Positions 20,890 to 46,544 of a stretch of DNA of 64,000 nucleotides are shown one piece after another. The position numbers and the translations under genes were made by a program. Position 1 is the stretch's first letter, and each line of letters starts with the position of its first letter. This stretch comes from Leucoraja ocellata. Its lineage: Eukaryota. Location: the NCBI GenBank assembly GCA_036785375.1, contig JAWMAR010000424.1, positions 310,001-374,000 on the forward strand. Reading direction: 5' to 3'. The notes below the pieces were generated by a model, which saw only the letters and a list, made by a program, of their open reading frames with translations, did not search any database and was not told the DNA's origin.

Positions 20890-20979
20890 CTTCCTGTTTT
20901 CCTGCAGTTTGATTTTCCAGATTCTCTTTTTCCCTTTTGCCCTCATCGGGACTTCCTGTGGTGCATTCTGAATCCGGCG
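20890..20979 (-). CDS. 90-nt micro-exon type B
   Basis: gttttaatacAG / G|GTAATG; APDSECTTGSPDEGKREKENLENQTAGKQE. Confidence 0.75.
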
Positions 20980-21105
20980 CTGTATTAAAACACAGCAAGG
21001 TGACAACAACTGAACTTAAATGCATGTTGGCCCAAACAGAAAATTCCACATATTTGAGTATTGACCTGAATATTGTATAGAATATTTGCAGGGAATAACT
21101 AAATA

Positions 21106-21966
21106 TAGGTATGTTACAAAACCTACCTGAATCGTGGCTGAGCATCTGCCCCACCCCTTGTGTGTGATTTTGGAGCTGTTTGGAGGGGGCGGGTTTAAAA
21201 CCCGATTTTTACTAGGCTGTTCCAATCGCAGATGTTCAGCCTAGTAAATCATTAACGGAGAATCGCTGCAAGACCCGGTCCCAAAAGCTATTATTAGTTT
21301 TATAGGCCTCGAATAGTAGATATAATAAATTTAAAAACTCTCGTTCAGTTCGCAAGCTTTCGCAGCCCCAGGGTTTTATAAAGCAAACAATTAAAGGTAT
21401 GTACCTTATTTTTACATTAAATGGGGCATGTATATAACCCTATAATTATAATTATCTATAACGAATAGCTCATTTTGGGCTTTTTATATCCCGCAGTATT
21501 TTTCTCGGCATTTGAGGGCACTAATCTAGCGCGCTGTCAACATTCTAAACCTGCGCGTTCACAGAAACCCACTAGAAAACCGATTTAAATGGGCATTTAT
21601 TTACAGCAATTGAACACTAAATTCCTTCCATTTGGCCTATAAATTAATGTAAATTAGATATAAAAATCATGTTATATTGTGAATTATTTGTGAATAATCT
21701 TTGGACACTTAGGCTATTTAAAAATGTTAATCTTTCCTTAAGAAATGTGCTTTTGATTATCCAAGATCACAGCTTTTTTGTAATGCCCATTGAAAATCAA
21801 TAGGGAACAAGATGCTAATTTCCGAGTATGAAAATGGTCATAACTTTTTTAATACTTGAGATATGAAAGTGAATTAGGTGTCAAATTCAACTTATTGTTA
21901 TGCTTTATCTGATGGGATAAATTGCAGACTTGATTTTTTAAATCTCAAAATTTTGTAACATTGCTA
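21106..21966. mobile_element. Second member of the 7-bp-TSD TIR transposon family, opposite orientation
   Basis: TAGGTATGTTACAAAA / TTTTGTAACATTGCTA; TSD CTAAATA. Confidence 0.8.
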
Positions 21967-22136
21967 CTAAATATAAATATAAATAACTCTTCTTCACTTT
22001 GAACCTCATTTGTCTTTAGACTTTTAGATACAGCCCTTCGGCCCACCGAATCCGTGCCGACCAGTGGTCACACCGTACATTAACAATATTCTACACTTTA
22101 ATGACTATTTACAATTTTACCAAAAACAAATTAGGA

Positions 22137-22355
22137 ATGGCACGATGGAGCAGTGGACGAGTTGTTGCCTTACAGCGCCAGTGACCCAGGATCGATTCTG
22201 ACTATGGACACTGTCTGTATGGAGTTTGTACATTCTCCCCGTGACCGCGTGGGTTTTCTCTGGCTGCTCTGGTAGCTCCAGCACTACAGGTTTGTAGGTT
22301 AATTAGCTTTGCTACAAACTGTCCCTGATGTGTGGGATAGTGCTATGTATGGGGA
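22137..22355 (+). mobile_element. HE1/V-SINE-type SINE
   Basis: tRNA-like head with A/B-box-like motifs and V-domain. Confidence 0.7.
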
Positions 22356-22832
22356 TCACTGGTCGGCTCGGACTGGGGAAACCTGGAGTACAAGAGATAT
22401 TGTGGTTCCGGCTGGAGAAAAGGAGGAGTGGATCAGGAAGAAGAGCTGGGATCATGTGAATCCCTGGAGAAGCATCGGATGTAGGAGTTACTTCAGAAGG
22501 AAATTAGAATGAGGAAGAGAAGGCATGAGATCACTTTGGCTGAGAAGATTAAGGAGAATGCAAAGAGTTTTTATAAGTATATGAAGGGGAATAGATAATT
22601 GGATTAGTATCGGATGCAGAATTGGCCTGAAGTTCATTAGTTCATGGAACAGAATTAGGCCATTCAGCCCATCAGAAGCAGAGGGTGACAGTGAAAGATA
22701 CAAGGAACTGTAGATGGTGGTTTACAAAAACATGGACAGTTGGAGTAAGTGGTTCAAGAAGCATCTGTGGAAAACATGGATAGGTAATCTTTCGGGTTGG
22801 GACATTTTTTGGACTAGAGACCCTGGCTAGTG

Positions 22833-23213
22833 GAGTTGACGGAGGAATTGGGAATAGGGGATGGAGTCCTTACAGGAAGTAGGGTGGGAGGAATAGTAGT
22901 CAAGATAGCCGTGGAAGTCAGTGGGTTTATAGTGGATGTCGGTCAGAAGTCTATCACCTGCGATGGAGATTTCTGCATCCTGGTGGAATGAACATTGATT
23001 TCTCACTATTCTGTTAACCCTTGCTGTCTCCTCCCCTTCCTACCTCAGCCCTTGGCCTCCTCCTCCTCCTTTTTTCCTTTCTTCTCCCAGCCTCCCCGCC
23101 TCCCCCCACCCCCTATCAGTCTGAAGAAGGGTTTTGGCCCGAAACGTTGCCTATTTCCTTCGCTCCATAGATGCTGCTGCACCCGCTGAGTTTCTCCAGC
23201 ATTTTTGTGTACC
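22833..23213. mobile_element. Penelope-like insertion: inverted RT fragment plus pLTR
   Basis: Minus strand reads IHYKPTDFHGYLDYYSSHPTSCKDSIPYSQFLR; roughly 12-bp duplication cctg(g/t)ctagtgg; empty paralogous site at about 47893. Confidence 0.8.
23117..23152 (+). ncRNA. Minimal type-I hammerhead ribozyme motif in the Penelope pLTR
   Basis: CTGAAGA-AGGGTTTTGGCCC-GAAA-CGTT core. Confidence 0.6.
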
Positions 23214-23297
23214 TGTCTAGTGGTGTGCCTCCCATTGCTGTTTGTTATCTATATCAATAATTTAGATGAGAATGTACAAGGCATTTTTAGATATTAC

Positions 23298-23720
23298 CTG
23301 AGGTAACTTTGAGGGCTGTAGTATGTATTTCAGACCAAGGGGCATCTGGAGTGTTTGATTTGTGTTCAATATTGATCTGAGCGGCATCGTCCATGGATAA
23401 ATCAGGCTGCACCTTTATACAGCAGTGAATGTGTAGAAGACCCAGATGGTTACGTTGCAATTCAGGCTGATCTGCAGAGAAGGATTTATCTTCATTGCAT
23501 GAATTCAGTATAGTTAGAGGTTGTGTCACCCTTTGTGGTCCCTGCAATTGTTCTGCTGACAACTGCCAGTGAAATAATGTCTTTGCTTCCTCTCCTTTCC
23601 TCTTCAGTGATATAACAATATCCATTGGCACCAGAGTAGTCATGGTCACATCCCAGCTCACATCAGCAGTTTCACCATGTACGACTTCATACTCATTCTT
23701 TATACCACTTATTGCAGGAG
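23298..23720 (-). CDS. Exon: post-TM C1-derived Ig-like domain (copy D2)
   Basis: tctttcAG / G|GTAATA, 423 nt, phase 1-1, open; paralog of 47978-48409 with only in-frame indels (3 and 6 nt). Confidence 0.8.
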
Positions 23721-24021
23721 CTGAAAGATCGACACAAAAAACATTAAATTCAATGTAAACATAATGTTCCATTTTACTGCATTATTGTCCAGCGCATTAT
23801 TCCTTGCATATAATTTACAAACTTCATTCATTTAAACTTAGTTTAGTTTAGAGATACAGCACGGGAACAGTTCTTCAATCCACTGAGTCCGCGCACACCA
23901 GTAACCACTCCATACACTAGTCCTATCCTAAACACTGGGGGCATTTACAGAAGCCAGCACGTAACCCACTGATTCCACACTGACCACCGGTGGATCACCC
24001 CGTAGTTCTGTGTTATTATCC

Positions 24022-24796
24022 GAATGGTGGCCTATTATCTGAATGGTGGCCGATTAGGAAAGGGGGAGATGCAATGAGACCTGGGTGTCATGGTACACCA
24101 GTCATTAAAAGTAGGCATGCAGGTGCAGCAGGCAGTGAAGAAGGCAAATGGTATGGTAGCATTCATAGCAAAAGGATTTATAGGAGCAGGGAGGTTTTAC
24201 TGCAGTTGTACAGGGTCTTGGTGAGGCCACACCTGTAGTATTGTGTACAGTTTTGGTCTCCTAATCTGAGTAAAGATATTCTTGCCATAGAGGGAGTACA
24301 GAGAAGGTTCACCAGACTGATTCCTGGGATGTCAGGACTTTCATATGAAGAAAGACTGGATAGACTCGGTTTGTACTGGCTAGAATTTAGAAGATTGAGG
24401 GGGGATCTTATAGAAACTTACAAAATTCTTAAGGGGTTGGACAGGCTAGATGCAGGAAGATTGTTCCCGATGTTGGGGAAGTCCAGAACAAGGGGTCACA
24501 GTTTAAGGATAAGGGGGAAATCTTTTAGGACCGAGATGAGGAAAACTTTTTTCACACAGAGAGTGGTGAATCTCTGGAATTCTCTGCCGCAGAAGGTAGT
24601 TGAGGCCAGTTCATTGGCTATATTTAAGAGGGAGTTAGATTTGGCCCTTGTGGCTAAAGGGATTAGGGGGTATGGAGAGAAGGCAGGTACAGGATACTGA
24701 GTTGATCAGCCATGATCATATTGAATTGCGGTGCAGGCTCGAAGGGCCGAATGGCCTACTCCTGCACCTATTTTCTATGTCTCTATGTTTCTATGT
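24022..24796 (+). mobile_element. CR1-B 3' fragment
   Basis: ORF 24329-24700; (TTTCTATG)n-type tail. Confidence 0.85.
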
Positions 24797-25009
24797 GTTG
24801 CCCAACATTGTTATCGACTCCCTCCACACTAGGGGCAATTTCCAGAGGGCCAATTAACTGACAAACCCGCACGTCTTAGGGATGTGTGATGAAAACCATA
24901 GAAAACGATGTCAAGAGTTATGGGGAGAAAGCAAGAGATTGGGGTTGAGAGGGTAAGATAGATCAGCATGATTGAATGGCGGAGTAGACTTGAAGGGCAA
25001 AATGTATAA

Positions 25010-26830
25010 TGTATGCAGGTAGACAAATCCCCAGGGCCTGAGCAGATATATCCACGGACATTGCGGGAAACCAGGGAGGAAATTGTGGGAGCCCTGGTTG
25101 AAATTTACGAGTCTTCTTTAAATACGTGAGAGGTGCCGGTAGACTGGAGGGTGCCTCTATTCAAGAAGGGATGCAGGGAAAATGCTGGGATCTATAGGGC
25201 AGTGAGCTTTACATCTGTAGTTGGAAAGTTACTAGATAATATTCTGAGGGATACAGACATTTAGACAAGGGGTGATTTGGGAAAGTCAGCATGGTTTTGT
25301 ACGTGGGAGATTGTGTCTCACAAATCTGATTGCATTTTTTGAAGATGTGACCAAAAAGGTTGATGAGGGCAGAGCAGTAGATGTTTCATATATGGGCTTC
25401 AGTGAAGCATTCGACAAAGGTTCCGCATAGTAGGCTGCTCTGGAAGGTTAGATCGCATGGGACCCAAGGAGCGATAGCTGAATGGATAGAAAATTGGCTT
25501 AATGGAAGGAAGCAGAGGGTGATGGTGGAAGGTTGCTTCTCAGATTGAAGGCCTGTGACTAGTGGTGTGCCTCAGGGTTCGGTCCTGGACCCGTTACTGT
25601 TTGTCATCTATGTTAATGGTTTGGATAAGAACACACATCGCAAGATTAGCAAGTTTGCGGATGATACAAAAGTGGGGGGTTTTACAGATAGTGGATATGG
25701 TTGTGAAAAATTGCAGCAGGAATTTGATCAATTGTCCAGGTGGGCTGAGGAATGGTTGATGAAATTTAATACAAAGAATTGTGATGTGTTTCATTTTGTT
25801 ATTGCTCGCCAGTGGTGGGGGGGGGGGGGGGATTTCTGTTGCGCTAGTATGGGTGTTGTGGGCCGAAGGTACTGGCTTCCTGAGGGCTAGTATAGACATT
25901 GTGGGCCGAATATATTCTTGGGCTGGCAGCTTAGTCACTGAGGCCTGGCAGTACAGTCACTCGTTCATTTTGTACAATTTCATTTTGTGAACACAGTCAC
26001 TCGTACAAATTCATTTTGTGAACACAAACTTTTAAAAAAGGCGAAGCAAACAATCGAGCAGCAGCCACTTTACAGCCGCATCGAGGGGACTCAACATGGA
26101 GTAGACGTGCGTTCAGTGTTATTCGCAGCTCAGAGAGCCGTAACCCTCGCGCTTCCTGGGTCTGGCAGAGACTGAGTGAGGGACTAAACCTCCGGGTTTT
26201 ATAGTCCCTCCGCCCTCCCCTCTGCCGCCAGCGGGGTCAGCAGAGAGAATGAGGAATTTTAAAAAACCATTAATATCTCTCTGATTTTTCATCAATGGGA
26301 AAAATCCTCTGGTTCCGGAAGGCGGAGGGGGCTCTGAGCGAGGTGGTCAAAAATGTCTCTCGGAAATCGCAGCACAGTGGGCCAAAAGCGGTCAAGATCA
26401 GACTTTTAGTAATATAGATGTGTCAAGCTGGAAAGGGTACAGAGAAGATTTACAAGGATGTTGCCAGGGCTAGATCGTCTGAACTATAGGGAGAGGTTGA
26501 GTTGGCTGAGACTCTATACCTTGGAGTGCAGGAGGATGAGGAGTGATCGTATTGAAGTGTACAAAATCATGAGGAATAGATCTGAGTTGTAACATTTTCA
26601 CACAAAGGATTCTGGTTTATGGAACAAGCTGACAGAGGAGGTAGTTGAGGCAGGGACTATCCCAACATTTAAAAACAGATAGACAGGTACATGGATAGGA
26701 CCGGTCTGGTGGGATATGGAACAAATGTGGGCAGGTGTGACTGGTGTAGCTGGAACATGTTCGCCTATGTGGACAAGTTGGGCCGAAGGGCCTGCTTCCA
26801 CATTGTATCACTCGATGACTCAATGACTCT
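25010..26830 (+). mobile_element. Old CR1 RT fragments interrupted by a Helitron-like element
   Basis: [16 protein letters not shown]; paralog of 49860-51200. Confidence 0.8.
25805..26418 (-). mobile_element. Non-autonomous Helitron-like element, 3' end not seen
   Basis: 5' end A|TCTATATTACTAAAAG; no TSD; absent from paralogous copies. Confidence 0.55.
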
Positions 26831-27953
26831 GCAGTAAAATCACGTGGATGGGTTGTTGCCTTACAGCACCAGTGACCCAGGATCGATTCTGCTAGTGTTG
26901 CTCCTAATTACTTCTTCCAAATCATTAATATATATATGGTAAACAGTTGCGGCCCCAACACCGAGCTTTGCGGCACTCCACTCGCCACTGCCTGCCATTC
27001 TGAAAAGGACCCGTTCACTCCTACTCTTTGCTTCCGGTCTGCAACTAATCTTCTATCCATGTCAACACCCTACCCCCAATACCATGTGCTCTAATTTTAG
27101 CCACCAGTCTCCCATGCGGGATCTTATCAAAGGCTTTCTGAAAGCCTTGGTACACTACATCCACTGGCTCCCCTTCATCCGTTTTGACTTGGACTAATCC
27201 TTTTACTGCTATCCAAATGCCCCATTATTACCTCTTTAATAATTGACTCCAGCATCTTTCCCACCACCGAAGTCAGGCTGAGTCTCTATTCCTTGGAGCG
27301 CAGGAGGATGAGGAGTGATCTCATAGAGGTGTACAAAATCATGATAGGAATAGGTAGATGCACAGAGTCTCTTGCCCAGAATAGGACCAGAGGACATAGG
27401 TTCAAGGTGAAGGGGAAAAGATTTAAGAGGAATCTGAGGGGTAACTTTTTCACACAAAGGGTGGTGGGTGTGTGGAACAAGCTGCCAGAGGAGGTAGTTG
27501 AGGCTTTGACTGTCCCATCATTGAGAAACAGTAAGACAGGTACATGGATAGGACCGGTTTGGGTGATTATGGACCAAGCGCTGGCAGGTGGGACTAGTGT
27601 AGCTGGGACATAATGGCGTGTGTGGGCAAGTTGAGCCGAAGGAACTGTTTCCACACTGTATCACTGAATGACTGTGACTATGACTACATGCTGTGCAGGT
27701 TTTATACACAGTGGGAGGTGGGTGGTGGGTGGCTGGAACGCACTGCCAGGGGTGGTGGTCGAGGCTGATACGAAAGTGGCATTTAAGAGGCTTTTGGATC
27801 GACACAGGTGTATGCTGGGAATGGAGGGATATGGGTTATGTGCAGGTAGCTAATTGATGGTCTTGGCATCATATCCATCACAGACATTGTGGGCTGAAGG
27901 GCCGGTTCCTGTGCTGTACTGTTCTATGTTCAATATTTCAGCAAAATCATTAC

Positions 27954-28043
27954 CTTCCTGTTTTCTTGCACTTTGTTTTTCCTGATTCTCTTTTTCCATT
28001 TTACCTTCATCAAGATTTCTTGTTGCGACATCTGAATCCGGTG
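27954..28043 (-). CDS. 90-nt micro-exon type B
   Basis: gttttaatacAG / G|GTAATG; APDSDVATRNLDEGKMEKENQEKQSARKQE. Confidence 0.75.
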
Positions 28044-28258
28044 CTGTATTAAAACACAGCAAGGTGACAACAACTGAACATGAATGCATGTAGTCCCAAA
28101 CAGAAAATTACACATATTTGAGCATTGACCTGAATATTGTATATAATATTTGCAAGGAATTAATAAATAAAAATCATGCACAGTCTGCAGACAGTGGTTG
28201 GACATCAAATACCATTGAAAGGCCAACAATACTCTGGATGCTTTGAGAAATGCCTGAC

Positions 28259-28348
28259 CTTCACTTGCTCCTGCATTTTGGGTATCCTGCCTCTCTGTCT
28301 CCTGCTCACCTTCATCACAACTCCCTGTGGCAGCATCTGACTTGGGCA
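28259..28348 (-). CDS. 90-nt micro-exon type A
   Basis: tttaaatacAG / G|GTCAGG; VPKSDAATGSCDEGEQETERQDTQNAGASE; a CR1 tail lies about 30 nt upstream of the acceptor. Confidence 0.65.
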
Positions 28349-28375
28349 CTGTATTTAAACAAAATAAGGCATTCA

Positions 28376-31300
28376 ACATATAACATATAACCATATAACA
28401 ATTACAGCACGGAAACAGGCCATCTCGACCCTTCTAGTCCATGCCGAACACATAATCTCCCCTAGTCCCATATACCTGCGCTCAGACCATAACCCTCCAT
28501 TCCCTTCCCATCCATATAACTATCCAATTTATTTTTAAATGATAAAAATGAACCTGCCTCCACCACCTCCACTGGAAGCTCATTCCACACAGCTACCACT
28601 CTCTGAGTAAAGAAGTTCCCCCTCATGTTACCCCTAAACTTCAGTCCCTTAATTCTCATGTCATGTCCCCTTGTTTGAATCTTCCCTACTCTCAATGGGA
28701 AAAGCTTTTCCACGTCAACTCTGTCTATCCCTCTCATCATTTTAAAAATCTCTATCAAGTCCCCCCTTAACCTTCTGCACTCCAAAGAATAAAGCCCTAA
28801 CTTGTTCAACCTTTCTCTGTAACTTAGTTGCTGAAACCCAGGCAACATTCTAGTAAATCTCCTCTGTACTCTCTCTATTTTGTTGACATCCTTCCTATAA
28901 TTAGGCGACCAAAATTGTACACCATACTCCAGAATTGGCCTCACCAATGCCTTGTACAATTTTAACATTACATCCCAACTTCTATACTCAATGCTCTGAT
29001 TTATAAAGGCCAGCACACCAAAAGCTTTCTTTACCACCCTATCTACATGAGATTCCACTTTCAGGGAACTGTGCACAGTTATTGCCAGATCCCTCTGTTC
29101 ACCTACATTCTTCAATTCCCTACCATTTACCATGTACGTCCTATTTTGATTTGTCCTGCCAAGATGTAGCACCTCACACTTATCAGCATTAAACTCCATC
29201 TGCCATCTTTCAGCCCACTCTTCCACTGGCATAAATCTCTCTGTAGACTTTAAACTCTACTTCATTACCCGCAACCCCACCTATCTTAGTATCATCTGCA
29301 TACTTACTAATCCAATTTACCACACCATCATCCAGATCATTGATGTACATGACAAACAACAGTGGACCCAACACAGATCCCTGTGGCACCCCACTCGTCA
29401 CTGGCCTCCAACCTGACAAACAACCATCCACCATTACTCTCTGGCATCTCCCATTCAGCCACTGTTGAATCCATCTTGCTACTCCACCATTAATACCCAA
29501 CCATTGAACCTTCTTAACCAACCTTCCATGAGGAACCTTGTAAAAGGCCTTACTGAAGTCCATATACACAACATCCACTGCGTTACCCTCATCAATTTCC
29601 CGTGTAACATATAACCATATAACCATATAACAATTACAGCACGGAAACAGGCCATCTCGGCCCTACAAGTCCATGCCGAACACATTTTTTTCCCCTTAGT
29701 CCCACCTGCCTGCACTCGTACCATAACCCTCCATTCCCTTCTCATCCATATGCCTATCCAATTTATTTTTAAATGATACCAATGAACCTGCCTCCACCAC
29801 TTCCACTGGGAGCTCATTCCACACCGCCACCACTCTCTGCGTAAAGAAGTTCCCCCTCATATTACCCCTAAACTTCTGTCCCTTAATTCTGAAGTCATGT
29901 CCCCTTGTTTGAATGTTCCCTATTCTCAAAGGGAAAAGCTTACTACATCAACTCTGTCTATCCCTCTCATCATTTTAAAGACCTCTATCAGGTCCCCCCT
30001 TAACCTTCTGCGCTCCAGAGAATAAAGACCTAACTTATTCAACCTATCTCTGTAACTTAGTTGTTGAAACCCAGGCAACATTCTAGTAAATCTCCTCTGT
30101 ACTCTCTCTATTTTGTTGACATCCTTCCTATAATTTGGCGACCAAAATTGTACCCCATACTCCAGATTTGGTCTCACCAATGCCTTGTACAATTTTAACA
30201 TTACATCCCAGCTTCTATACTCAATGCTCTGATTTATAAAGGCTAGCATACCAAAAGCTTTCTTTACCACCCTATCTATATGAGATTCCACCTTCAAGGA
30301 ACTATGCACGGTTATACCCAGATCCCTCTGTTCAACTGTATTCTTCAATTCCCTACCATTTACCATGTACGTCCTATTTTGATTTGTCCTGCCAAGGTGT
30401 AGCACCTCACATTTATCAGCATTAAACTCCATCTGCCATCTTTCAGCCCATTTTTCCAAATGGCCTAAATCACTCTGTAGACTTTGGAAATCCTCTTCAT
30501 TATCCACAACACCCCCTATCTTAGTATCATCTGCATACTTACTAATCCAATTTACCACACCTTCATCCAGATCATTGATGTACATGACAAACAACAAAGG
30601 ACCCAACACAGATCCCTGAGGCACCCCACTAGTCACCTGCCTCCAACCCGATAAACAGCCATCCACCATTACCCTCTGGCTTCTCCCATTCAGCCACTGT
30701 TGAATCCATCTTGCTATTCCTGCATTTATACCCAACAGTTGAACCTTCTTAACCAACCTTCCATGAGGAACCTTGTCAAAGGCCTTACTAAAGTCCATAT
30801 AGACAACATCCACTGCTTTACCCTCGTCAATTTCCCTAGTAACCTCTTCAAAAAATTCAAGAAGATTAGTCAAACATGACCTTCCAGGCACAAATCCATG
30901 TTGACTGTTCCTAATCAGACCCTGTTTATCTAGATGCTTATATATATTGTCTCTAAGTATCTTTTCCATTAATTTGCCCACCACTGAAGTCAAACTAACA
31001 GGTCTATAATTGCTAGGTTTACTCTTAGAACCCTTTTTAAACAATGGAACAACATGCGCAGTACGCCAATCCTCGGGGACTATTCCCGTTTCTAATGACA
31101 TTTGAAATATTTCTGTCATAGCCCCGGCTATTTCTACACTAACTTCCCTCAATGTCCTAGGGAATATCCTGTCAGGACCTGGAGACTTATCCACTTTTAT
31201 ATTTTTCAAAAGTGTCAGTACTTCTTTTACTTTGAACCTCATAGTATCCATAGCTACTCTACTAGTTTCCCTTACCTCACATAATTCAATATCCTTCTCC

Positions 31301-34248: not shown

Positions 34249-35339
34249 CACATAGAAGATTTACGAAGAAGTTGCCAGGACTAGAGGGTCAGAGCTATAG
34301 GCAGAGGTTGAGTAGGCTGGGACTCCATGTACATAGGTTTAAGGTGAAGGGGAATAGATTTAATAGGAATATGTGGCATAACTTTTTCACACAAAGGATG
34401 GTGGGTGTATGGAACAAGCTGCCAGAGGAGATAGTTGAGGCTGCGACTATCCCAATGTTTGAGAAACTGTTAGAAAGGTACATGGATAGGACAAGTTTGG
34501 AGGGATAGAGACCAAGCACAGGCAGTTGGGACTAGTGTAGCTGGGACATGTTGGCCTGTGTGGGCAGGTTGGGCAGGTTTCCATGCTGTATCACTCTATG
34601 ACTCTATGACTATCCCGTCCCTGCTACAAGACAAATGTTTACTCGACTTCAGAATGAACAATTCTGGGATATTCACACAGGACAAAATGTCTCTCTGTCA
34701 ACCCAGGGAATATAGATTGAAACAATTCAGCAAGTGCGCTTGTGTCTCATGGCAGAAGATCTTATTCTAGTAAAATCACATGGTTTAGCTTCCGGTTTAT
34801 TATTGTCACATGTAGCGAGGTTCAGTGAAAAGCTTTGTTTTGCAGCAATCCAACCAGATCAGGTGTACCAGCCATAAATATAATCAAGTCAAAGGGGAAG
34901 ATGAAGTGCAGAATATAGTTTATAGTTACAGGAAGAAAATAAGATTTAAATGGTCTACACTTGCAGGTGGAAAAAAAGATTTTAAAGGGCAGAGTACACA
35001 AAGAGTAACAACTGAACATGAATATGTGGATTTGCACACAGATAATGTGCCATCTTTGTGAATTTACCTGATATTTTTTAAAATTATAAGAGCCATAGAC
35101 AGTGTAGACAGTCAGAACCTTTTTCCAGGATGCGAGATACAAATACTACAGCTTTAAGATGAGAGGGGCAACGTTTAAAGGAGATATTCAGATGCACAAA
35201 GTCTCTTGCTCAGAGTAGGTGAATCGAGGACCAGGTTTAAGGTGAAGGGGAAAAGATTTAATTGGAATCTGAGGGGTAACTTTGTCACACAAAGGGAGGT
35301 AGGTGTATGGAACAAGAGGAGGTAGTTCAGGCAGGGACT

Positions 35340-36228
35340 AATAGAAACATAGAAACATAGAAAATAGGTGCAGGAGTCGGCCATTCGGCCCTTCGAGCCT
35401 GCACCGACATTCAAAATGATCATGGCTGATCATCCAACTCAGTATCCCGTACCTGCCTTCTCTCCAGCGGCAGCGGAGACCCGACTCGGCCTCTGAGCTG
35501 TGGCGAGGCAGCGACCACCCGCGGAGTTTGAACCGTCGCCTCGGCGCAGAGGGAGAACAAAGAGGGAAGAGCCAGAGACTTTAAGATTTTGCCTTCCACC
35601 ACAGTGAGGAGGTGTTTGGTGAACTCACTGTGGTGGATGTTAAATTTGTGTTGACTATGTGTTTTTGTCATTTTTAAAAATTATATGTATGACTGCAGGG
35701 AAACAAAATTTCGTTCAGACCAAAAGGTCTGAATGACAATAAACGAATCTAATCTAATCTAATCAATACCCCCTGATCCCTTTAGCCACAAGGGCCACAT
35801 CTAACTCCCTCTTAAATATAGCCAATGAACTGGCCTCAACTACCTTCTGTGGCAGAGAGTTCCAGAGATTCAACACTCTCTGTGCGAAAAAAGTTCTTCT
35901 CATCTCGGTCCTAAAGGATTTCCCCTCTATCCTTAAGCTCTGAACCCTTGTCCTGGACTTCTCCAACATCGGGAACAATCTTCCTGCATCTAGCATGTCC
36001 AACCCCTTAATAATTTTGTAAGTTTCTATAAGAACCCCCTCAATCTCCTAAATTCTAGCGAGTACAAGCCGAGTCTATCCGGTCTTTCTTCAAATGAAAG
36101 TCCTGACATCCCAGGAATCAGTCTGGTGAACCTTCTCTGCACTCCCTCTATGGCAATAATGTCCTTCCTCAGATTTGGAGACCAAAACTGTACGCAATAC
36201 TCCAGGTGTGGTCTCACCAAGACCCTGT
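35340..36228 (-). mobile_element. CR1-B 3' fragment with a + strand retroposon tail inserted (35467-35765)
   Basis: ORFs 35763 and 36026; (AATCT)n tail of the insert. Confidence 0.8.
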
Positions 36229-36676
36229 CAACGTTTAATAAACAGTTAGACAGGTAAATGGATGGGACTTGTTTGGAGGATTATGGAACAAATGTGGGCA
36301 GCTGGGACAAGTGTAGCTGGGACATATTGACCGGTGTGGGCAAGTTGGGCCGTAGGGCCTGTTTCCACACTGTATCACTCTATGACTCTGTGACTATGAC
36401 TATGTGCTGGGCAGGTTTTTTACATAGTAGGTGGTGGATGGTGGGTGGTGGGTGGCTGGAACGCGCTGCCAGGGGTGGTGGTCGAGGCTGATACGATAGT
36501 GACCTTTCAAAGGTTTTTGGATAGACACACGGATATGCTGGGAATGGAGGGATATGGGTTATGTGCAGGTAGCTAATTGATGGTCTTGGCATCATGTTCA
36601 GCATAGACATTGTGGGCTGAAGGGCCTGTTCCTGTGCTGTACTGTTCTATGTTCTGTAATTCAGCAAAAGCATTAC

Positions 36677-36766
36677 CTTCCTGTTTTACTGCTCTTTGTT
36701 TTTCCCGATTCTCCTTTTCCCTTTTACCCTCATCGGGACTTCCTGTGGTGACATATGAATCTGGCG
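36677..36766 (-). CDS. 90-nt micro-exon type B
   Basis: gttttaatacAG / G|GTAATG; APDSYVTTGSPDEGKREKENREKQRAVKQE. Confidence 0.75.
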
Positions 36767-36981
36767 CTGTATTAAAACACAGCAAGGTGACAATAACTGA
36801 ACTTGAATACGTGGAGTTCCAAACAGAAAATTCCACATATTTGATTATTGACCTGAATATTGTATATAATATTTGCAAGGATTAACTAAATATAAATCAT
36901 GTACAGTCTACAGACAATGGTTGGACATAAAATGCCAGTGAAAGACCAACAATACTCTGGATGATTTGAGAAATGACTTAC

Positions 36982-37071
36982 CTTCACTTGGTCCTGTATT
37001 TTGGATATCCTGCCTCTCTGTGTTCTGTTCACCTTCATCACAACTCCCTGTGTCAGCATCTGACTTGGGCA
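36982..37071 (-). CDS. 90-nt micro-exon type A
   Basis: tttaaatacAG / G|GTAAGT; VPKSDADTGSCDEGEQNTERQDIQNTGPSE. Confidence 0.75.
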
Positions 37072-37153
37072 CTGTATTTAAAGAAAAATAAAGTCTCTCA
37101 GATGTGATAATAGCAACACAGCCTGAGACAAGGTATGTGAGAAGCTGGATCAC

Positions 37154-37760
37154 ATCCGCACCGCGGTTTCAGACCTTCAGCTGGCCGAAGTGCCTTGCGG
37201 AGCTGTACGCATCATGGTCGTGTGCGATGTCTCCACTGGTCGCGCCCGCCCTATCGTCCCCTGTCAGTTGGAGACGGCGGGTCTTCGACGCCGTTCATGG
37301 CCTGGCTCACCCATCCAATCGGGCGACGTCCGCGCTGGTAGCAGCCAAGTTCGTCTGGCACGGGCTCCGTAAACAGTTGGCTGCCTGGGCCCATGCCTGT
37401 GTATCTTGTCAGACCTCCAAGGTCCAGCGACACAAGCGGCCCCCCGTGCAGGAGTTTGCGCTCCCTGAGGGTAGGTTCCTGCACGTGCATGTCGACCTTG
37501 TAGATCCCTTGCATCAGTCCCGCGGTGCCATGCACCTGCTCACTATCGTGGACCGTTTCACGTGGTGGCCAGAGGCGATCCCACTTTCTGATACCTCCGC
37601 CGCGGCTTGCGCTCGGGCTATAGCGGCCCACTGGGTCACCAGGTTTGGTGCAATCCGACATTTCCACCGACAGGGGGGCCCAGTTCAGCTCTTCCTTCTG
37701 GTCTGCCCTAGCCCAGCTCTACGGTGCCCGGTTACACCATGCGACCGCCTACCACCCGCA
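37154..37760 (+). mobile_element. Gypsy integrase internal fragment (second family)
   Basis: H-GLAH..CVSCQ zinc finger, VHVDLV rve core; no LTR. Confidence 0.85.
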
Positions 37761-38112
37761 TTAAAATAAAAGAAAGTCTCTCAGATGCGATAATGGCAAC
37801 ACAGCCTGAGACAAGGTATATGAGATGCTGGACAAAATGTAGACAAAAATGCTGGGGAAACTCAGTGGGTGGGGCAGCATCTATGGAGCGATGGAGATAG
37901 GCAACGTTTCGGGCGAAACTCATCTTTAGACACCTCAAGGAACTTTATTATTCTTCCCCACAGTGAAGTCTTCATCTGCCAAAGGATCTGTATCTCACTC
38001 CTGCAGAAAAGTTATGCCACAGATTCCTATTCAATCTATTCCCCTTCACCTTAAACCTATGTACGTAGAGTCACAGACTACTCAACCTCTGCCTATAGCT
38101 CTGACCCTCTAC

Positions 38113-39525
38113 TAGAAACATAGACATAGAAACATAGAAAATAGGTGCAATAGGGGGCGATTCGCCCCTTCGAGCCGGCACCGCCATTCATTGTGATCAT
38201 GGCTGATCGTCCCCAATCAATAGCCCCTGCCTGCCTTCTCCCCATATCCCTTGATTCCACTAGCCCCGAGAGCTCTATCTAACTCTCTCTTAAATCCATC
38301 CAGTGACTTGGCCTCCACTGCCTCCTCTGTGGCCGGGAATTCCACAAATTCACAACTCTCTGGGTGAAAATGCTTTTCCTCACCTCAGTCTTCCCCTTTA
38401 TTCTGAGACTGTGGCCCCTGGCTCTGGACTCGCCCAACATTGGGAACATTTTTCCTGCATCTAGCTTGTCCAGTCCCTTTATAATTTTATATGTTTCTAT
38501 AAGATCACCATTCATCCTTGAAACCTCTAGTAAATACAAGTCTAGTCTTTTCAATCTTTCCTTATATGACAGACCGCCATCCCAGGGAACAATTTCGTGA
38601 ACCTAAGCTGCACTGCCTCAATTACAAGGATGTCCTTCCTCAAATTAGGAGAACAAAACTGGACACAATACTCCAGATGTGGTCTCACCAGAGCCCCATA
38701 CTGCAGAAGAACCTCTTTACTACTATACTGAAATCCTCTTGTTATGAAGGCCAACATTCCATTAGCTTTCTTCACTGCCTGTTGTACCTGCACGCCAACT
38801 TGCAGTGACTGGTGTACAAGGACGCCCGGGTCTCGCTGCACCTCCCCCTTGCCATTGAGATATTAATCTGCCCACTTGTTTTTGTCGCCAAAGTGGATAA
38901 CCTCACATTTATCTATATTATACTGCATCTGCCACGCATCTGCCCACTCACTCAATCTGTTCAGGTCACCCTGCAACCTCCTAACATCCTCTTCACAGTT
39001 CACACTGCCACGCAGCTTTGTGTCATCCGCAAACCGACCAATTTTCTATCCAAGGTACACAAAATTGCTGGAAAAACTCAGCGGGTGCAGCAGCATCTAT
39101 GGAGCGAAGGAAATAGGCGACGTTTTGGGCCGAAACCCTTCTTCAGACGTTTCGGCCCGAAACGTCGCCTATTTCCTTCGCTCCATAGATGCTGCTGCAC
39201 CCGCTGAGTTTCTCCAGCAATTTTGTGTACCTTCAATCTTCAGGAATCTGCATTTCCTTCTTGAACAATTTTCTATCCATGTCAACACCCTACCCTCAAT
39301 GCCATGTGCTCTAATTTTAGTCACCAGTCTCCCGTGCGGGACCTTATCAAAGGCTTTCTGAAAACACATCCACTGGCACCCCTTCATCCATTTTACTTGT
39401 CCATCCTCAAAAAATTCCACAAGATTAGTCAAGCATGATTTCCCTTTCATAAATCCATGTTGACTTGGACTAATCCTTTTACTGCTATCCAAATGCCCCA
39501 TTATTACCTCTTTAATAATTGACTC
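38113..39525 (-). mobile_element. CR1 fragment containing an inverted pair of Penelope pLTRs (39054-39262)
   Basis: ORFs 38279, 38551, 39169; palindromic pLTR junction at about 39147. Confidence 0.8.
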
Positions 39526-40234
39526 CAAAATTCAAAGAGCCATAGATAGGGTAGACAGTCAGAACCTTTTTCTCAGGATGTGAGATACAAATACTAGAGG
39601 GCACAGCTTTAAGTTGAGAGGGGCAATATTTAAAGGAGATATCCAGATGCACAAAGCCCCTTGCTCACATTAGGTGAATCGAGGACCAGGTTTAAGGTGA
39701 AGGGGAAAATATTTAATTGGAATCTGAGGGCTAACGTTTTCACACAAAGGGAGGTAGGTGTATGGGACAAGCTGCCAGTGGACGTAGTTCAGGCAGGGAC
39801 TAAAACAACATTTAAGAAACAGTTAGACAGGTAAATGGATGGGACTTGTTTGGAGTATTATGTAACAAACGCGGGCAGCTGGGACAAGTGTAGCTGGGAC
39901 ATATTGGCTGGTGTGGCCAAGTTGTGTAATAGGGCCTGTATCCACACTGTATCTATGACTCTGTGACTATGACTATGTGCTGCCAGGTTTGATACACAGT
40001 GGGTGGTGGGTGACTGGAACGCGCCGCCAGGGGTGGTGGTGGAGGCAGATATGATAGTGACCTTTAAGAGGCTTTTGGATAGACACACGGATATGCTGGG
40101 AATATAGGGATATGGGTTATGTACAGGTAGATAAGTGATGGTCTTGGCATCATGTTCAGCACAGACATTGTGGGCTGAAGGGCCTGTTCCTGTGCTGTAC
40201 TGTTCTATGTTCTATGTTTCAGCAAAAGCATTAC

Positions 40235-40324
40235 CTTCCTGTTTTACTGCACTTGGATTTTCCAGATTCCTTGCTTGATTTTCATTCTCATCGGGACTTC
40301 CTGTGGTGACACCTGTAACCGGCG
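40235..40324 (-). CDS. 90-nt micro-exon type B (divergent)
   Basis: ttttaatacAG / G|GTAATG; APVTGVTTGSPDENENQARNLENPSAVKQE (not in the ORF track). Confidence 0.7.
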
Positions 40325-40809
40325 CTGTATTAAAATACAAGAAGGAGTCTCACATGTAATGATGCCAACACTGCCTGAGAAAATGTATCCCAACACATTC
40401 TGAGAAGCTGGATCACAGGACTCGAACTTTTGTAGTTTCCCACCAATAATTTAAGAGCTCAAAAGAGAAGCCGGACTAAAGATCTGCAATTTGTTGCTGC
40501 AAAAGTTACGTAGAATTGTTATTTAGTTAAATACATCAATCTAGACATCAAAATTCTACTGATCCCTTCCCTGCTGTAAGCCAAATGTTTACTAGACTTC
40601 AGAATGAACATTTCTGGGCTATTCACACTGGACAAAATGTCTCTCTGTCAACCCAGGGAATATAATATGAAACAATTCAGCAAGTGCACTTAGAGTCATA
40701 GAGTCATAGAGTGATACAACTTGGAAACAGGCCCTTCAGCCCAACTTGCCCACATCGACCAACATGTCCTAGCTACACTAGTCCCAGTTACCCAGATTTG
40801 GTCCATATC

Positions 40810-43800
40810 TGTTTTGATATATGTTTGCTTACAAAATAAGTAAACTAGCACATAATATACAGAGAAAGATGGCTGCACACACACTCGTGTTGGGATCAAA
40901 ACAGGAATGATTTATTTCCAAGTCAAAGGTCCTGACTGATTTACTAAGCATGTGCACGAATGAGTACAGCTCATACGCATAAGTTACATGGATATGTCAT
41001 ATCCTTTCCTTTTTGACATTTTGGGATTACATTTCCAACGATCCAAAACAAAGTAAACTTAAACACTTTTCATAATATTACACCGTAGTAATATGGTTTA
41101 ACAACAAAATAAAACAACTGTTCTGTCTTATCTCACAATTTCAATCATAGTCACACTTGTGACATTTCAATAACATAAAATAATGTTCACATGCTTTCTT
41201 CTCATAAGCATGTAGGTACAGCGCAATGAAACACATTACTTTGTGACATACTCGCCGTACCTCTCCGCCGGGCCGACAGCTCTTCCTGCCCTAGTCTTTG
41301 TGATGGTGTTTCTTTCAAGTGTCTTCTTTTCAGTGTGTACATTCTGTGCATCACTTCTAGTTTCTTCTCTTGTGCCACTTTGTTTTTGTTTAGATTTCTC
41401 TGTGTTATGAGTTTCACAAGTTGCATCTTTTTCTGGTGATGCTTGTTGTGTTGGTATATTTTGTGTCAGCTGAGGTTGCAAAGGTTTCTCAGTCTTCTCC
41501 GCGACTGGTAGTTTCTCAGGAGTTATGTGTGGGGGTAGTTCTCCGGTCTTCTTCAGATCCACTCGTCGGATTAGAAGTCCTGACTCTGCCTCGACTTCGT
41601 ATGATCTCTCATCCAGTCGTCTCTGAACTGTTGCTCTCTGCCATCTGGTATCTTCTAGTTTATAGGGTTTGAGTCTTACAACATCACCTTCTTCCAGGAT
41701 TGGCAGATCCTTGGCATGTTGGTTGTAGATTTTTGACTGTTTTCCTTGCAAATCCTTCATCTTTTTCCTCTCTTCTGTGAGTATCTCAGCACCACGCGGT
41801 TTGAGGAGGTTTTGAACCCTGGGTTGAATTTGCTAGGACTTGGGGAAGCTTTATGCAACATTTTCACACAATATAAATTGTCCCCTCTCCAACTGTTATA
41901 ATAATTCTTTTACCTTCATAGGTGAAACGGACTTGACGACAAACAGGGACGGACTTGACGACAAATTCTTTGCAGCCCAGATTCTGTTTTGCTTTTTTTT
42001 CTAGTTTAGGGGCTTTTGTTTTTCTCTTTTTTCTTTTTTTTCTTTTTATCTTTTTGTTTTTATATATACAAGTTCTCTTTTAAACACTTAACTATATTTA
42101 CATAGAGACCGGGAGGTCTATACTCAATGTGTATTTTGACACTGGACTCATATTTAGGTTCTACTTGTTATTTATGTAATCCTGATCCCTATGTATCAAT
42201 ATCATTGTTGTGTTTATCATTATTTTAATTTTTTTTTTGTTTTGTTTTTGTTTTTGAAAAAAACGAATAAAAACATTATAAAAGCCAAAAAAATAGGTTA
42301 GATGTAGTTGGAAGTGTCTTTCTTGTTCTCCTTCCATGTAATCTTTGTTCCAGACTACTGTTCACTCCCTCAAGTCCCACTTTCTCGCATGGTTGATCTG
42401 GGAGGTCATGGGGCATCAGAGTTTCTTTCTGATTCTGTTGTTCGTGCGTCCTGCAGGCTTCACAGTTTGAAATGAACTGCTTCACATCAGAGTTCATTCC
42501 GGGCCAGAAAATGCATTCTCTAGCACGTATGGGGGTTCCTTCCACTCCCAGGTGAGAGATGTGGAGTGTCTTCTTCATATCTTTGTGTAGAGTGACAGGG
42601 ATTACAACTCTCTCTCCTGTGAATAATAGGCCGTCTTGCACACTCAACTCGTCTCTGACGTTGAAGTATGGTGGTGCTGCCTCTGGGACTTCTGCCTTGT
42701 GATCTGGCCATACATTTTGGATTACTCTCTTAACTGTTTGTAGTGTTTCATCTTCCCTGATATGGGCTTGGATGCGTTTCACCTTGTCCTCTCCCATGCT
42801 CAAGGACTCAACTACGTTGACATCAGTGAATCTGGTTGATCCTGTGGTGTCAGGGGGTATGCTCGGGAGAACATATCTGCTAGATGCATGTCGTTTCCCT
42901 TTACCCACTTGATCTTGATGTCATTGTGTAGCATCCTCATCATCATGCCATGGAAACGTCTTGATCCTCTATGCAGAGGCTTTTTGACAATGACTTCCAA
43001 CGGCTTGTGGTCACTCTGAATGATCACTCTCTGTCCGTAGGTTTTACTGATGGAAGCGCTAGAGGGCAAACACTATTGCTAGTGCCTCCTTCTCAATCTG
43101 AACATATCTCTGCTCGGTTGGTGTCAATGTTCGACTCACATAGGACAGTGGTTGTTCTTTCTGCATGAGTGTTGCACCTAGACCTTCGTTGCATCACATT
43201 GTATGGTCAGCTGTTCGTCTGGTGTGTAGTACACCAGGATAGGTGCCGTTGTCAACAGCTCCTTGATCTTTGACATTGCCATGTCATGTTCTGATGACCA
43301 TTCCCACTCTGCTTCCTTGTGGGTCAATCTCCTCAAAGGCTCGAATGTGTCCGACAACATTGGCAGGAATCTTGCCAAGTAGTTTACACTGCCTTGTAAT
43401 CTTTGGATTTCTGTTGGATTGGTTGGTTTGGGCATCTCTAGGATAGCTTGGATCTTCTTCGGATCCGGTTCCAGGCCACGATCTGTAACTATATGTCCTA
43501 AATGTGATACATGTAGTTTTCACTGCCGACTTCTTCCGGTTCAGCTTGATCGCTCTGTCTCTGTATCGTTGAAGAAGATCTTGCAGTCTTGCATCGTGAT
43601 TCATTTCTGCATCTTCTCTGGTGTCCCCTACTCCGAATAGGATGATGTCATCTGCAACACATTCCATTCCCTTTCATCCTTCTAGTGCTTGTTGCAGCTT
43701 CTTCTGGAAGATCTCTGCACTTACTTTCTGTCCAAGTGGCCACCTCTTCCAACGATATCTCACAAAAGGAGTGTTCATGATTGTTAGGAAATTGCTCTCC

Positions 43801-45522
43801 TCATCTAGTTCACAGTGGAGGTATCCTGACTTCAGATCGAATCTGGAAAAAATCTTTGCCGGACAGCCAAGGGAGTACATCCTCTATGATAAGTAGTCTG
43901 TGGATCTCCCTTTTCAGGACTTTGTTGAGGGGTCTAGGATCTATGCAGAACCTCAACTCTGTTCTGTTCTTTTACTCCGTAACGACCAGTCTGCTACACA
44001 ACTCAGTTGGTTCTTCGACTTGAGTCAAGATGTCCTGCTCGACCAGCTTCATGAGACCATTCATGACCTTCTCTTTCATGGCTACAGGTACCGGCTTTGC
44101 AGGACACTGTGATGGGGTCACATCCTCCAACCTAGTTACCAACTTGACCTTGTCAGGCAGTCTCCCAGGTCTTTCCTCATCAAAGATATCTTTGTAGCTT
44201 GAGTAATGAGCCAGCCTCGCTAACAGCATTCAGGCTCTTGAAGTTCTCGTAGTGAACCGTGATGAGTTTCATCAGTTGTGCAGCTTTGCCGCTCAGGAGC
44301 GATGTGAGCCAGCCTTCCTCTAACACTATGAGGTGAACACGGTACTTCTTGTTCTACGGCTTGAAGTACGACTTTCATCCTACCTTCTGCCAGCAGGTTG
44401 GATCCGTTGTACATCTTTAAGATGATCTTCTTTCGATTAATGTCCTCATTGTTGGGTATAAGATCCTTGGAAATCACATTAACACTAGCACCAGAGTCAA
44501 TCTGAAACATGATGGCTTCTGTGCCGACCTGCATCTCAGCAAATAGGCCTGAAGAGGAATTGTTTCCAGCTGCATTGATCTCAATGCAACTCCCAAACTC
44601 TGTGTCGGAAATGGACGTTGTGTCAGATGTCTCTACGACCTTGTGCGGACCCCGTTTCTGCATGCTCTCCTTCCTCTACGTGCAGCAGCGGGTGAAATGG
44701 TTTTGTCGTCCGCATCTGTTGCAGTCCTTCCCATACGCTGGGCATTCCTCTTTCCTACGTTTGTATCCTTGCACAAAACTTACACTTGACTAGTCCCTGA
44801 TTCTTCCTCTGCGTAGGAAAATCAACCATCTTTTCCCTCAGTTTGAATCGTTCCACCTTGTTTATTGTCGGCTCTTCGCCGATGACCTGCATTCTTGCTG
44901 CTGTTACCTCCGAGGATCTACATATGTCCACAGTCTTCTGCAGTGTCAGATTCCTCTTCTGAAGGAATGTCTTTCTAGTTGATTGGTCCTCAATACCAAT
45001 GACGATGCGATCTCGAATGAGGCTTTCGCTCAGGCACTCAGAAGTTGCATGTTTTAACAAGTTCCTTCAGCTCTGCAACATACGATTCAATGCTTTCCCC
45101 TGATTTCTGGTCTCGTTTATTGAAAATGAATCTTTCATACGTTTCATTCGTCTCTCCTATGATGATGGTCGACATCTTGTGGATGATAACTTTCACATCC
45201 GTTTCATCTGCTACCGTTTCGAATGGCAGGGTATTGAAGATTCGCAGTCCTTCCGGTCCAACAGAATGCAGGAATACTGCTATTTGATACAGTTTCTCTT
45301 TCCTATCCAGTTCTGTTATCACTGCATAATTTTCAAACATATGTCTACTTACAAAATAATTAAACTAGTACATAATATACAGAGAAAGATGGCTGCATAC
45401 ATACTCGTGTTGGGATCAAAAACAGGAATGATTTATTTCTAAGTCAAAGGTCACTGACTGACAATGAGCATGTGCAAGAATGAGTACAGCTCATACGCAT
45501 AAATTACATGGATATTGTCACA
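40810..45522 (-). mobile_element. Gypsy LTR retrotransposon, degenerate near-full-length
   Basis: TG..CA ends; 5-bp TSD ATATC (40805-40809, 45523-45527); about 190-bp LTRs; PPT AAAAAGGAAAGGA at 41002-41014; gag-PR(DSGA)-RT(ADD)-RH(CDA/DHKPL)-IN order. Confidence 0.95.
41812..42294 (+). mobile_element. L1/Tx1-type LINE 3' end inserted in the Gypsy
   Basis: FARTWGSFMQHF* C-terminus, T-rich UTR, AATAAA plus A tail, TSD AGGTT. Confidence 0.65.
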
Positions 45523-46157
45523 ATATCCCTCCAAACCTGTCCATGTACCTGTCGAACAGTGTCTTAAATTTTGTGATAGTCCCCGTCTTAACTACCTCCT
45601 CTGGCAGCTTGTTCCATACACCCACCACCCTCTGTGTAAAAAGGTTACCGCTTAGATCTTTTCCCTTTCACCTTAAACCTATGTCCTCTGGTTCTCAATT
45701 CACCTAATCCGGGCAAGAGACTCTGTGCATCTACCCGATCTATTCCTCTCATGTTCCTATACACCTCTGTAAGATCACCCATCATCCTCCTGCACTCCAA
45801 GGAATAGAGTCCCAGAGTACACAACCTCTCTCTGTAGCCCACACCCTCTAGTGTTCTGCACTATGACTCTGTGACTATGACTATGTGTGGGGCAGGTTTT
45901 ATACACAGAGGGTGGTGGGTGGTAGGTGGTGGGTGACTGGAACGTGCTGCCAGGGGTGGTGGTGGAGGCAGATACGATAATGGCATTTAAGAGACTTTTG
46001 GATAGACACATGGATATGCTGGGAATAGAGGGATATGGGTTATGTGCAGTTAGCTAATTGATGGTCTTGGCATCATGTTCAGCACAGACATTGTGGGCTG
46101 AAGGGCCTGTTCCTGTGCTGTACTGTTCTATGTTCAATATTTCAGCAAAAGCATTAC

Positions 46158-46247
46158 CTTCCTGTTTTCCTGCACTTTGTTTTTCCTGATTCTCTTTTTC
46201 CATTTTACCTTCATCAAGATTTCTTGTTGCAACATCTGAATTTGGCG
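46158..46247 (-). CDS. 90-nt micro-exon type B
   Basis: gttttaatacAG / G|GTAATG; APNSDVATRNLDEGKMEKENQEKQSAGKQE. Confidence 0.75.
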
Positions 46248-46454
46248 CTGTATTAAAACACAGCAAGGTGACAACAATTGAAGTTGAATGCATGTAGTCC
46301 CCAATAGAAAATTCCACATATTTGAGTACTATTTGTATATAATATTTGCAAGGATTAACTAAATATAAATCATGTACAGTCTGCAGACAGTGGTTGGACA
46401 TCAAATGCCACTGAAAGGCCAACAATACTCTGGATCCTTTGAGAAATGTCGTAC

Positions 46455-46544
46455 CTTCACTTGCTCCTGCATTTTGTGTGTCCTTCCTCTCTGTCTCTTG
46501 TTCACCTTCATCACAACTCCCTGTGGCAGCATCTGACTTGGGCA
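46455..46544 (-). CDS. 90-nt micro-exon type A
   Basis: tttaaatgcAG / G|GTACGA; VPKSDAATGSCDEGEQETERKDTQNAGASE. Confidence 0.7.

Follow-up and report, generated by a model that had tools for sequence, protein, structure and literature searches.

The window, by which we mean the whole 64,000-nt stretch of Leucoraja ocellata DNA that was analysed, contains on its minus strand part of a gene with the order leader, V, C1, transmembrane (TM), short cytoplasmic exon, Ig-like exon, repeats, Ig-like exon, repeats; phase 1-1 is common to every exon of the tail. The leader exons (about C424:388.7k and 391.2k) and the V exon (C424:376767-377096) lie outside the window on the same scaffold, C424. Within it are an Ig C1-set exon (57512..57823), a 102-nt TM exon followed by basic residues (55143..55244; homologous to the TM of P0001) and a first cytoplasmic exon of 78 nt (54831..54908). 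Two cytoplasmic Ig-like exons, which we designate X, are also present: one of 432 nt (47978..48409) and another, of 423 nt and open, that sits inside the repeat array (23298..23720). A terminal coding exon with a stop, at 10200..10310 on the plus strand, is part of a neighbouring gene copy (G2); for the gene in the window, the corresponding exon is likely C424:186120-186230. An assembly gap occupies 18031..18230.

The repeats themselves are eight exons of the minus strand, each 90 nt long, preceded by AG and followed by GT, and open in phase 1-1 (8/8). These exons are genuine, and they divide into classes of three and five members, just as a sequence-only reading of this DNA had described. We label the three-member class B (46455..46544, which is first in transcript order, 36982..37071 and 28259..28348), and we subdivide the five-member class into A (36677..36766 and 20890..20979, the latter being eighth in transcript order), A2 (46158..46247 and 27954..28043) and Ap (40235..40324). 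The two classes are homologous, as had also been proposed: 50-63 of 90 nt are identical between them, far above chance, and identity is about 62% in exon and in flank, yet both classes measure 90 nt. The term micro-exon is less apt, since its usual upper limit is about 27-51 nt. In two genome searches, the best 40 scored matches of each were confined to scaffold C424 and contig C2905, which rules out a dispersed transposon as the origin of the repeat exons. A dead, 5'-truncated ninth copy (54466..54529, minus strand) retains its donor and 3' 64 nt, with repeat-element sequence in place of the acceptor side; this copy, the host gene, the Ig-like exons and the much larger array described below were all missing from the earlier reading. 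We did not count as an exon a 36-nt stretch upstream of the B exons (window 46707-46742), which has a donor-like end and lacks an open phase-1 frame.

Which gene hosts these exons? A V-set match (E 9e-10) and a C1-set match (E 1e-14) together with a single TM segment describe the architecture of B7-H6/NCR3LG1 (PDB: 3pv6, 4zso, 6yjp), a type I membrane protein with a V + C1 ectodomain. Against the PDB, the best single-domain score for the V exon is to B7-H6 (51 bits, versus 36 per domain for CD276); by summed score, two-domain CD276 heads the list. The first match of a catshark homologue is also B7-H6 (E 2e-24), and by these two measures B7-H6 is the closest B7 relative in sequence. The C1 domain alone is a better match to UrIg2 and Ig constant domains than to B7-H6. 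As to gene neighbourhood, we take RPS13 and KCNJ11 to be the neighbours of human B7-H6/NCR3LG1: an RPS13 match lies on C11, and none of 23 Kir matches is on C424, a scaffold of only 1.87 Mb. We conclude that the host is probably a skate V + C1 + TM gene of the B7-H6/NCR3LG1 type, resembling an NKp30-type ligand. It differs from B7-H6 in its tail, which carries Ig-like domains and a set of repeat exons whose number ranges, by gene copy, from 10 to about 47; in humans, the B7-H6 tail is Gag-like. B7H6 genes are reportedly clustered and multi-copy in Xenopus, as Flajnik is said to have described in 2012.

The X exons are predicted to encode an Ig β-sandwich. The predicted model (pLDDT 87.8, pTM 0.83) superimposes on V-type Ig domains with a Z score of 12.2 and an rmsd of 2.5-2.7 over 112-115 residues, and a profile of X matches C1 (74%, E 2.7e-5) when the comparison is confined to the X columns, the alignment (A1) having also held the ectodomain C1 as a confounder. 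In that profile alignment, the canonical B-strand and F-strand cysteines of C1 align with Trp and an aliphatic residue, so that X would adopt the Ig fold without its usual disulfide. Searches with X gave no family match in Pfam and no usable match in Atlas, and a fold from the single sequence reached a pLDDT of only 38.

The array appears to extend far beyond the window. The contig to the right of the gap shares with C424:1-8723 an end-to-end overlap that contains 0 mismatches, whereas a rival copy for the same join shows 5 mismatches and 2 gaps; the window gene therefore likely continues at the C424 start. Joined in this way, the sequence would likely describe a single gene with 47 repeat exons and a tail of about 1,900 aa, of which the window's eight are the first. 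Two separate contig paths give about 47-51 repeat exons each (the second count is register-ambiguous), and neighbouring gene copies have 10 and 16, approximately a fivefold range among copies. On C424, 101 of 102 full-length repeat copies are intact, and nine copies have lost their acceptor through transposon-linked changes. The units of duplication are several kb long, comprising exon, intron and transposons, and duplicated blocks of 4-32 kb are 95-99.7% identical. C424 also has a reversed overlap, and both a second collinear block (95-98%) and contig C2905 have the appearance of a haplotype left uncollapsed; a mis-oriented contig and an uncollapsed haplotype are the likely reason that the gene is split in this assembly.

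These copies offer a means to ask what selection has preserved. Counting distinct variants, we found 0 stops (4.3 expected), 0 indels (3.2 expected) and 1 splice-dinucleotide variant (4.3 expected) in the repeat exons: in all, 1 disruptive change against about 12 expected. Each test is modest by itself (P 0.014, 0.04 and 0.07), because the copies are recent and not independent. We prefer these counts to tree-based parsimony (8.0 stops expected), as the latter counts recombined variants too often and takes in non-homologous flank. There is also an internal control: in a headless fragment, in which no V, C1 or TM was found, two repeat copies have decayed to 82 and 83 nt (hand count) beside a frameshifted X exon. 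The 90-nt length is, on the other hand, retained across about 38% inter-class divergence and in another skate genus. The sequence-only reading had proposed selection on frame and length, and had suggested the exon-intron comparison of indels that now favours it; its claim is supported for frame and splice sites, but not for total length, bearing in mind the copies with 10, 16 and 47 exons and the nine lost acceptors.

The residues tell a different story. Substitutions per site are 0.32 in repeat exons versus 0.36 in introns, and the introns directly adjoining the repeats are conserved about as well as the exons themselves, so the expectation that exon conservation would exceed that of the flanking intron is not supported. 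Nor is selection on amino acids: pooled over classes, 16 of 86 repeat variants are synonymous (20.8 expected), a dN/dS of about 1. All 18 variants of the Ap class are non-synonymous (0 synonymous), the neutral synonymous share being 0.24, an excess that drift fits poorly. Elsewhere in the gene, dN/dS is 1.06 for the X exon and not below 1 for V or C1, values that would also fit a family-wide relaxation of constraint; the V exon has 18 non-synonymous versus 3 synonymous variants (omega 2.1, P 0.32), and the TM exon combines excess divergence with a neutral N:S ratio, which suggests gene conversion. Overall, reading frame and splice sites look to be under selection while the amino acids drift.

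The repeats encode a disorder-like peptide, with a hydropathy of 0.29 where the boundary lies at 0.46, in agreement with the disordered spacer that had been envisaged. Its description as acidic suits only the three-member class (net charge -5.6 per 29 aa), class A being at -1.1. CK2-type sites, previously put forward as a feature of the repeats, occur at chance level (58 observed, 56 +/- 6 in shuffles), and we reject their enrichment as a designed feature.

We assign to the same family a set of uncharacterized cartilaginous-fish proteins, among them XP_078271721 (Rhinoraja), XP_055505892-899 (Leucoraja), XP_067902347-352 (Heterodontus) and XP_042197527 (Callorhinchus), which share V-C1-TM, a cytoplasmic X domain in 1-7 copies and charged repeats. 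The Rhinoraja model has V-C1-TM and 7 units; the eight Leucoraja (little skate) models are without V, C1 and TM and differ at their ends, and their units are identical to those of the window at 26-29 of 29 residues. These unnamed RefSeq predictions differ from the window gene in having fewer 30-aa units, at most 12 per retrieved protein. A 26-aa unit related to these is present in stingray tails, scoring 10-14 bits where the reversed control scores 1.2, and sharks use other periods (36, 60-63, 103 and 167 aa). Relative to Leucoraja isoform X1, one unit is absent from each of isoforms X3, X4 and X7, and two from X8; Heterodontus isoforms likewise differ by one 26-aa unit. Thus, in-frame skipping of any exon, which was anticipated from their symmetry, is seen for single units in relatives' gene models. 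Among the 15 listed matches of contigs from four putative-RNA sets to window 36500-55400 (2,144 further), none contains an exon joint; transposon matches dominate, making this uninformative either way. No description of the array or family was found in the literature searched, most subscription papers being outside its reach; Ohta and Flajnik (in 2015) may already have reported that B7H6 of amphibians or sharks has Ig domains in its cytoplasmic part.

We consider it probable that the repeats are coding-type cassettes, placed after the TM exon of a skate B7-H6-like gene and multiplied into a predicted disordered tail in which frame and splice sites alone are guarded. Unequal crossing-over likely multiplied the exons, and the window contig would join the C424 start. 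The exons would be included mostly one after another and skipped now and then; if one that is included acquired a stop or frameshift, the tail would be cut or the mRNA would decay, and the change would be purged, whereas exon gain or clean exon loss would be tolerated. Perhaps the tail serves as a bulk charged spacer between the cytoplasmic Ig-like domains, without a specific motif, and such a spacer might tune how long an NKp30-type ligand stays at the cell surface or how it is packed there.

The symmetry of every cassette and the isoforms that differ by whole units would also suit regulated splicing, in which, much as for the variable exons of CD44, the length or phosphorylation of the tail would be set by the subset of cassettes that a cell picks. 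We think this unlikely: the models retain most units in series, with no more than two missing from any, and they are computational predictions, in which repeats this similar can easily cause junctions to be mis-mapped; moreover, the units are interchangeable in composition, with apparently neutral amino acids and no excess of CK2 motifs. A less probable proposal is an arms race, in which the tail grows and diversifies under pathogens that strip B7-H6-type ligands from the cell surface. PMC6514059 describes downregulation of human B7-H6 by herpesviruses, tails have expanded with differing periods across sharks and rays, and the Ap and V variants lean the same way; the pooled synonymous share is nevertheless near neutral, and the divergence of the TM exon suggests gene conversion. 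Least probable of all, in our judgement, is a neutral or artefactual array arising from young duplications, a decaying gene or a count of 47 inflated by two mis-assembled haplotypes. An omega of about 1 in every exon tested and the assembly irregularities on C424 and C2905 are compatible with it; the deficit of disruptive changes, the constant exon length, the decay of the headless copies and the agreement of two contig paths argue against it. In a more ambitious reading, cartilaginous fish would carry an unnamed B7-H6-like family with intracellular disulfide-free Ig domains, and in skates its tail, reaching about 1,900 aa, would vary in length and exon order under pathogen pressure, both between the haplotypes of one animal and between transcripts. 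We regard this as a long shot; it would mean that the intracellular part of an NK-cell ligand is diversified in length by inheritance as well as by splicing.

Tandem symmetric exons that encode disorder are familiar from titin PEVK and the CD44 variable exons. The skate array shares with such proteins its phase 1-1 exons, internal tandem duplication, disorder-like product and potential for in-frame splicing; it differs in forming the cytoplasmic tail of an immune ligand, in being very young (copies are 90-100% identical), in that its exons move with kilobases of transposon-rich intron, and in that a functional motif is not conserved. According to PMC3632108, calpastatin, MAP2 and the SIBLING/enamel proteins are disordered and built from tandem symmetric exons. 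With that mechanism so well known, it is the size and location of the array that surprise: what we appear to have is an accordion of tandem exon duplication in an undescribed cartilaginous-fish B7-H6-like family. Several 'uncharacterized' shark and ray proteins thereby gain an identity, and the predicted structures suggest that a B7-H6-like protein can hold Ig-fold domains together with a very large, changing intracellular tail. The locus is also a natural case of birth and death at the level of the exon, in which frame is retained and residues drift, with a decayed control adjoining.

All eight repeat exons on the minus strand of the window (20890-20979, 27954-28043, 28259-28348, 36677-36766, 36982-37071, 40235-40324, 46158-46247 and 46455-46544) are exactly 90 nt long; each is flanked by AG and GT and stays open in phase 1-1 through 29 whole codons. 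The sequence-only reading had likewise given them as 90 nt, open and with splice sites intact; the array is a genuine feature. That reading's division into three class B exons and five others (A, A2 and Ap) was also recovered, with 50-63 of 90 nt in common between classes. Its label 'micro-exon', a term with a size limit below 90 nt, overstates their smallness, and 'acidic' applies strongly only to class B (net charge -5.6 per 29 aa), less so to Ap (-3.8), A2 (-2.0) and A (-1.1). A ninth copy (54466-54529, minus) keeps its donor, its acceptor side being replaced by repeat-element sequence.

The minus strand also carries, upstream of the array, exons for a short cytoplasmic segment (78 nt), for the TM segment and for a C1-set Ig domain; the V-set exon (C424:376767-377096, where C424 is scaffold JAWMAR010000424.1 and the window its positions 310001-374000) and, upstream of it, the leader exons fall outside the window. 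By sequence similarity the host gene is B7-H6-like: among solved structures B7-H6 is the best single-domain match to the V exon (51 bits), yet CD276 (36 bits per domain) comes first by summed score, and a catshark homologue has B7-H6 as its first match (E 2e-24). With the C1 exon alone, UrIg2 and antibody constant domains score above B7-H6. The TM exon (55143-55244) differs from C424:244240-244341 at 11 of 99 nt, against <2% in the flanks; the N:S ratio is neutral-like, so selection is no likelier a cause than gene conversion over a short tract. The C1 exon is duplicated in the neighbouring gene copy G2 (C424:226352-226663), and leader exons are duplicated in copies G1, G2 and G4 (C424:201575 and 208225; 388735 and 391251).

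We found 130 repeat-exon copies, 113 in 1.0 Mb of C424 (1.87 Mb in total) and 17 in 70 kb of another contig, C2905. On C424, 102 are full-length, 101 of them intact (the exception has AG changed to AA); nine lack the 5' part and two measure 82 and 83 nt. The contig carrying the eight exons starts at the edge of an assembly gap (18231), and its end, when reversed, aligns over the full length of C424:1-8723, and also to C2905:1-9592, with 0 mismatches each; against G2 there are 5 mismatches and 2 gaps. We infer that the join is mis-oriented and that the window gene continues through C424:1-186230. So joined, it would comprise 47 repeat exons, three exons (X) for a cytoplasmic Ig-like domain and a terminal exon, giving a tail of ~1,900 aa; G2 has 10 repeat exons and G4 has 16. 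An alternative path from C2905 to a block at 1.044 Mb (99.6% overlap) gives ~51 in a different order; this block, collinear with the first at 95-98% identity, could be a paralogue of it or belong to the second haplotype. Left of the gap, 464-7539 has inverted 85-95% matches to introns of the minus-strand gene and is the 3' end of G2, on the plus strand. An LTR-retrotransposon-like element (40819-45520) occupies an intron between two repeat exons; its terminal direct repeats (~185 nt) are 91% alike, and a partial second copy lies beside the gap (18231-20278). Elsewhere, C424:1341617-1343935 (minus) holds a 773-aa ORF that we take to resemble a P-element/THAP9-type transposase.

The two X exons in the window, phase 1-1 and 3' of the TM exon, lie directly before the array (47978-48409, 432 nt) and within it (23298-23720, 423 nt). 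X matched no Pfam family, and a search of 1.84 billion representatives returned 16 matches; the 10 looked up individually, and P0001 as well, all proved to be uncharacterized proteins of cartilaginous fish ranging from chimaera to rays. A further match, P0016 (E 4e-4), is a fibronectin-repeat protein and was rejected as a relative. From a 17-row alignment, the fold is predicted confidently (pLDDT 87.8) as an Ig sandwich by structure comparison (Z 12.2). The X profile aligns weakly with C1, both of whose cysteines are substituted in X, and this would fit a cytoplasmic location. In further B7-H6-like genes at C424:512k-643k, V and C1 precede Ig exons of X-like and C1-like type (C424:519.7k, 525.5k, 563.9k, 567.7k, 573k, 574k, 635k, 637k and 642k).

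The selection tests use distinct variants tallied across 99 full-length C424 copies; the other three of the 102, in which a LINE stands in place of flank, were left out, as were the C2905 copies and truncated and decayed copies. Substitution rates do not set the exons apart: 87 variants in 270 exon sites (0.32) and 180 in 503 flank sites (0.36). A and B share ~62% identity in exons and equally in flanks, yet the exons of both classes are 90 nt. Synonymous changes make up 16 of 86 classed exon variants (20.8 expected). That the array is neutral, or its count inflated by assembly, we consider very unlikely. Selection on the frame, as previously proposed, is supported by 0 stops against 4.3 expected (P 0.014) and 0 indels against 3.2 (P 0.04), with 1 splice-dinucleotide variant against 4.3 (P 0.07), the copies being non-independent and these P values a guide only. 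The two frameshifting copies (82 and 83 nt), probably one lineage, sit in a fragment with a frameshifted X exon, where no V, C1 or TM exon was found. Headless gene fragments (C424:446117-457014 and 479441-485275) hold the first cytoplasmic exon, a frameshifted X, a decayed repeat and the terminal exon, with no V, C1 or TM found, and serve as a decay control. Counting against a simple reading are omega elsewhere (also ~1 in X, 2.1 in V with P 0.32, and 1.5 in C1) and the Ap class (e.g. 40235-40324), with 18 non-synonymous and 0 synonymous distinct variants in 18 copies. Across the 47 exons, the suggested CK2-type S/T-x-x-D/E sites occur at chance (58 versus 56 +/- 6 in shuffles); in a charge-hydropathy comparison the repeat peptide falls well beyond the boundary towards disorder, in keeping with the proposed disordered spacer.

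Genomic comparison gives duplicated blocks of 4-32 kb. We propose that unequal crossing-over between kilobase units would gain or lose exons harmlessly, given that the exons of the tail all share phase 1-1, that transposon-linked acceptor loss would drop a single exon cleanly, and that the cost would be limited to stops and frameshifts within an included exon. Combinatorial splicing of the repeat exons under regulation seems unlikely to us. RefSeq gives eight isoforms of Leucoraja LOC129705962, with units identical to window units at 26-29 of 29 positions; one unit is missing from isoforms X3, X4 and X7, and two are missing from X8. These models are predictions, without an ectodomain, and presumably based on RNA junctions. 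Inside an intron, in an apparent LINE, is a 114-nt segment (38789-38902, minus) with AG/GT-like ends whose translation is 92% identical to a 38-aa insert of the Leucoraja models; it may be an in-frame exon of cryptic type. Sequences corresponding to a 45-aa insert lie at C424:12423 and 297253. Diversification of the tail driven by pathogens, which we hold slightly less likely than regulated splicing, would find a parallel in the targeting of human B7-H6 by herpesviruses (PMC6514059).

The skate array is a variant on a known theme, in which tandem symmetric exons build up disordered proteins (PMC3632108). Our literature search, with the main B7H6 evolution papers and supplements beyond its reach, found no description of the B7-H6-like family or the array, and the cartilaginous-fish family is absent from the accessible part of PMC10751288; its proteins are already predicted in RefSeq, without names. 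A Rhinoraja model (XP_078271721) has V-C1-TM and seven repeat units. Stingray tails carry a related 26-aa unit and shark tails other repeat periods, so tail expansion recurs across this family; in a Heterodontus homologue (P0002, XP_067902348), a tail of seven near-identical 167-aa repeats containing X looks like the same accordion, here built with the Ig-like exon. With unequal exchange between phase 1-1 units as the favoured reading, the array would encode a disordered, charged spacer that surrounds Ig-like domains in the cytoplasm, and our best guess is that the tail serves the surface lifetime or packing of a putative NKp30-type ligand.
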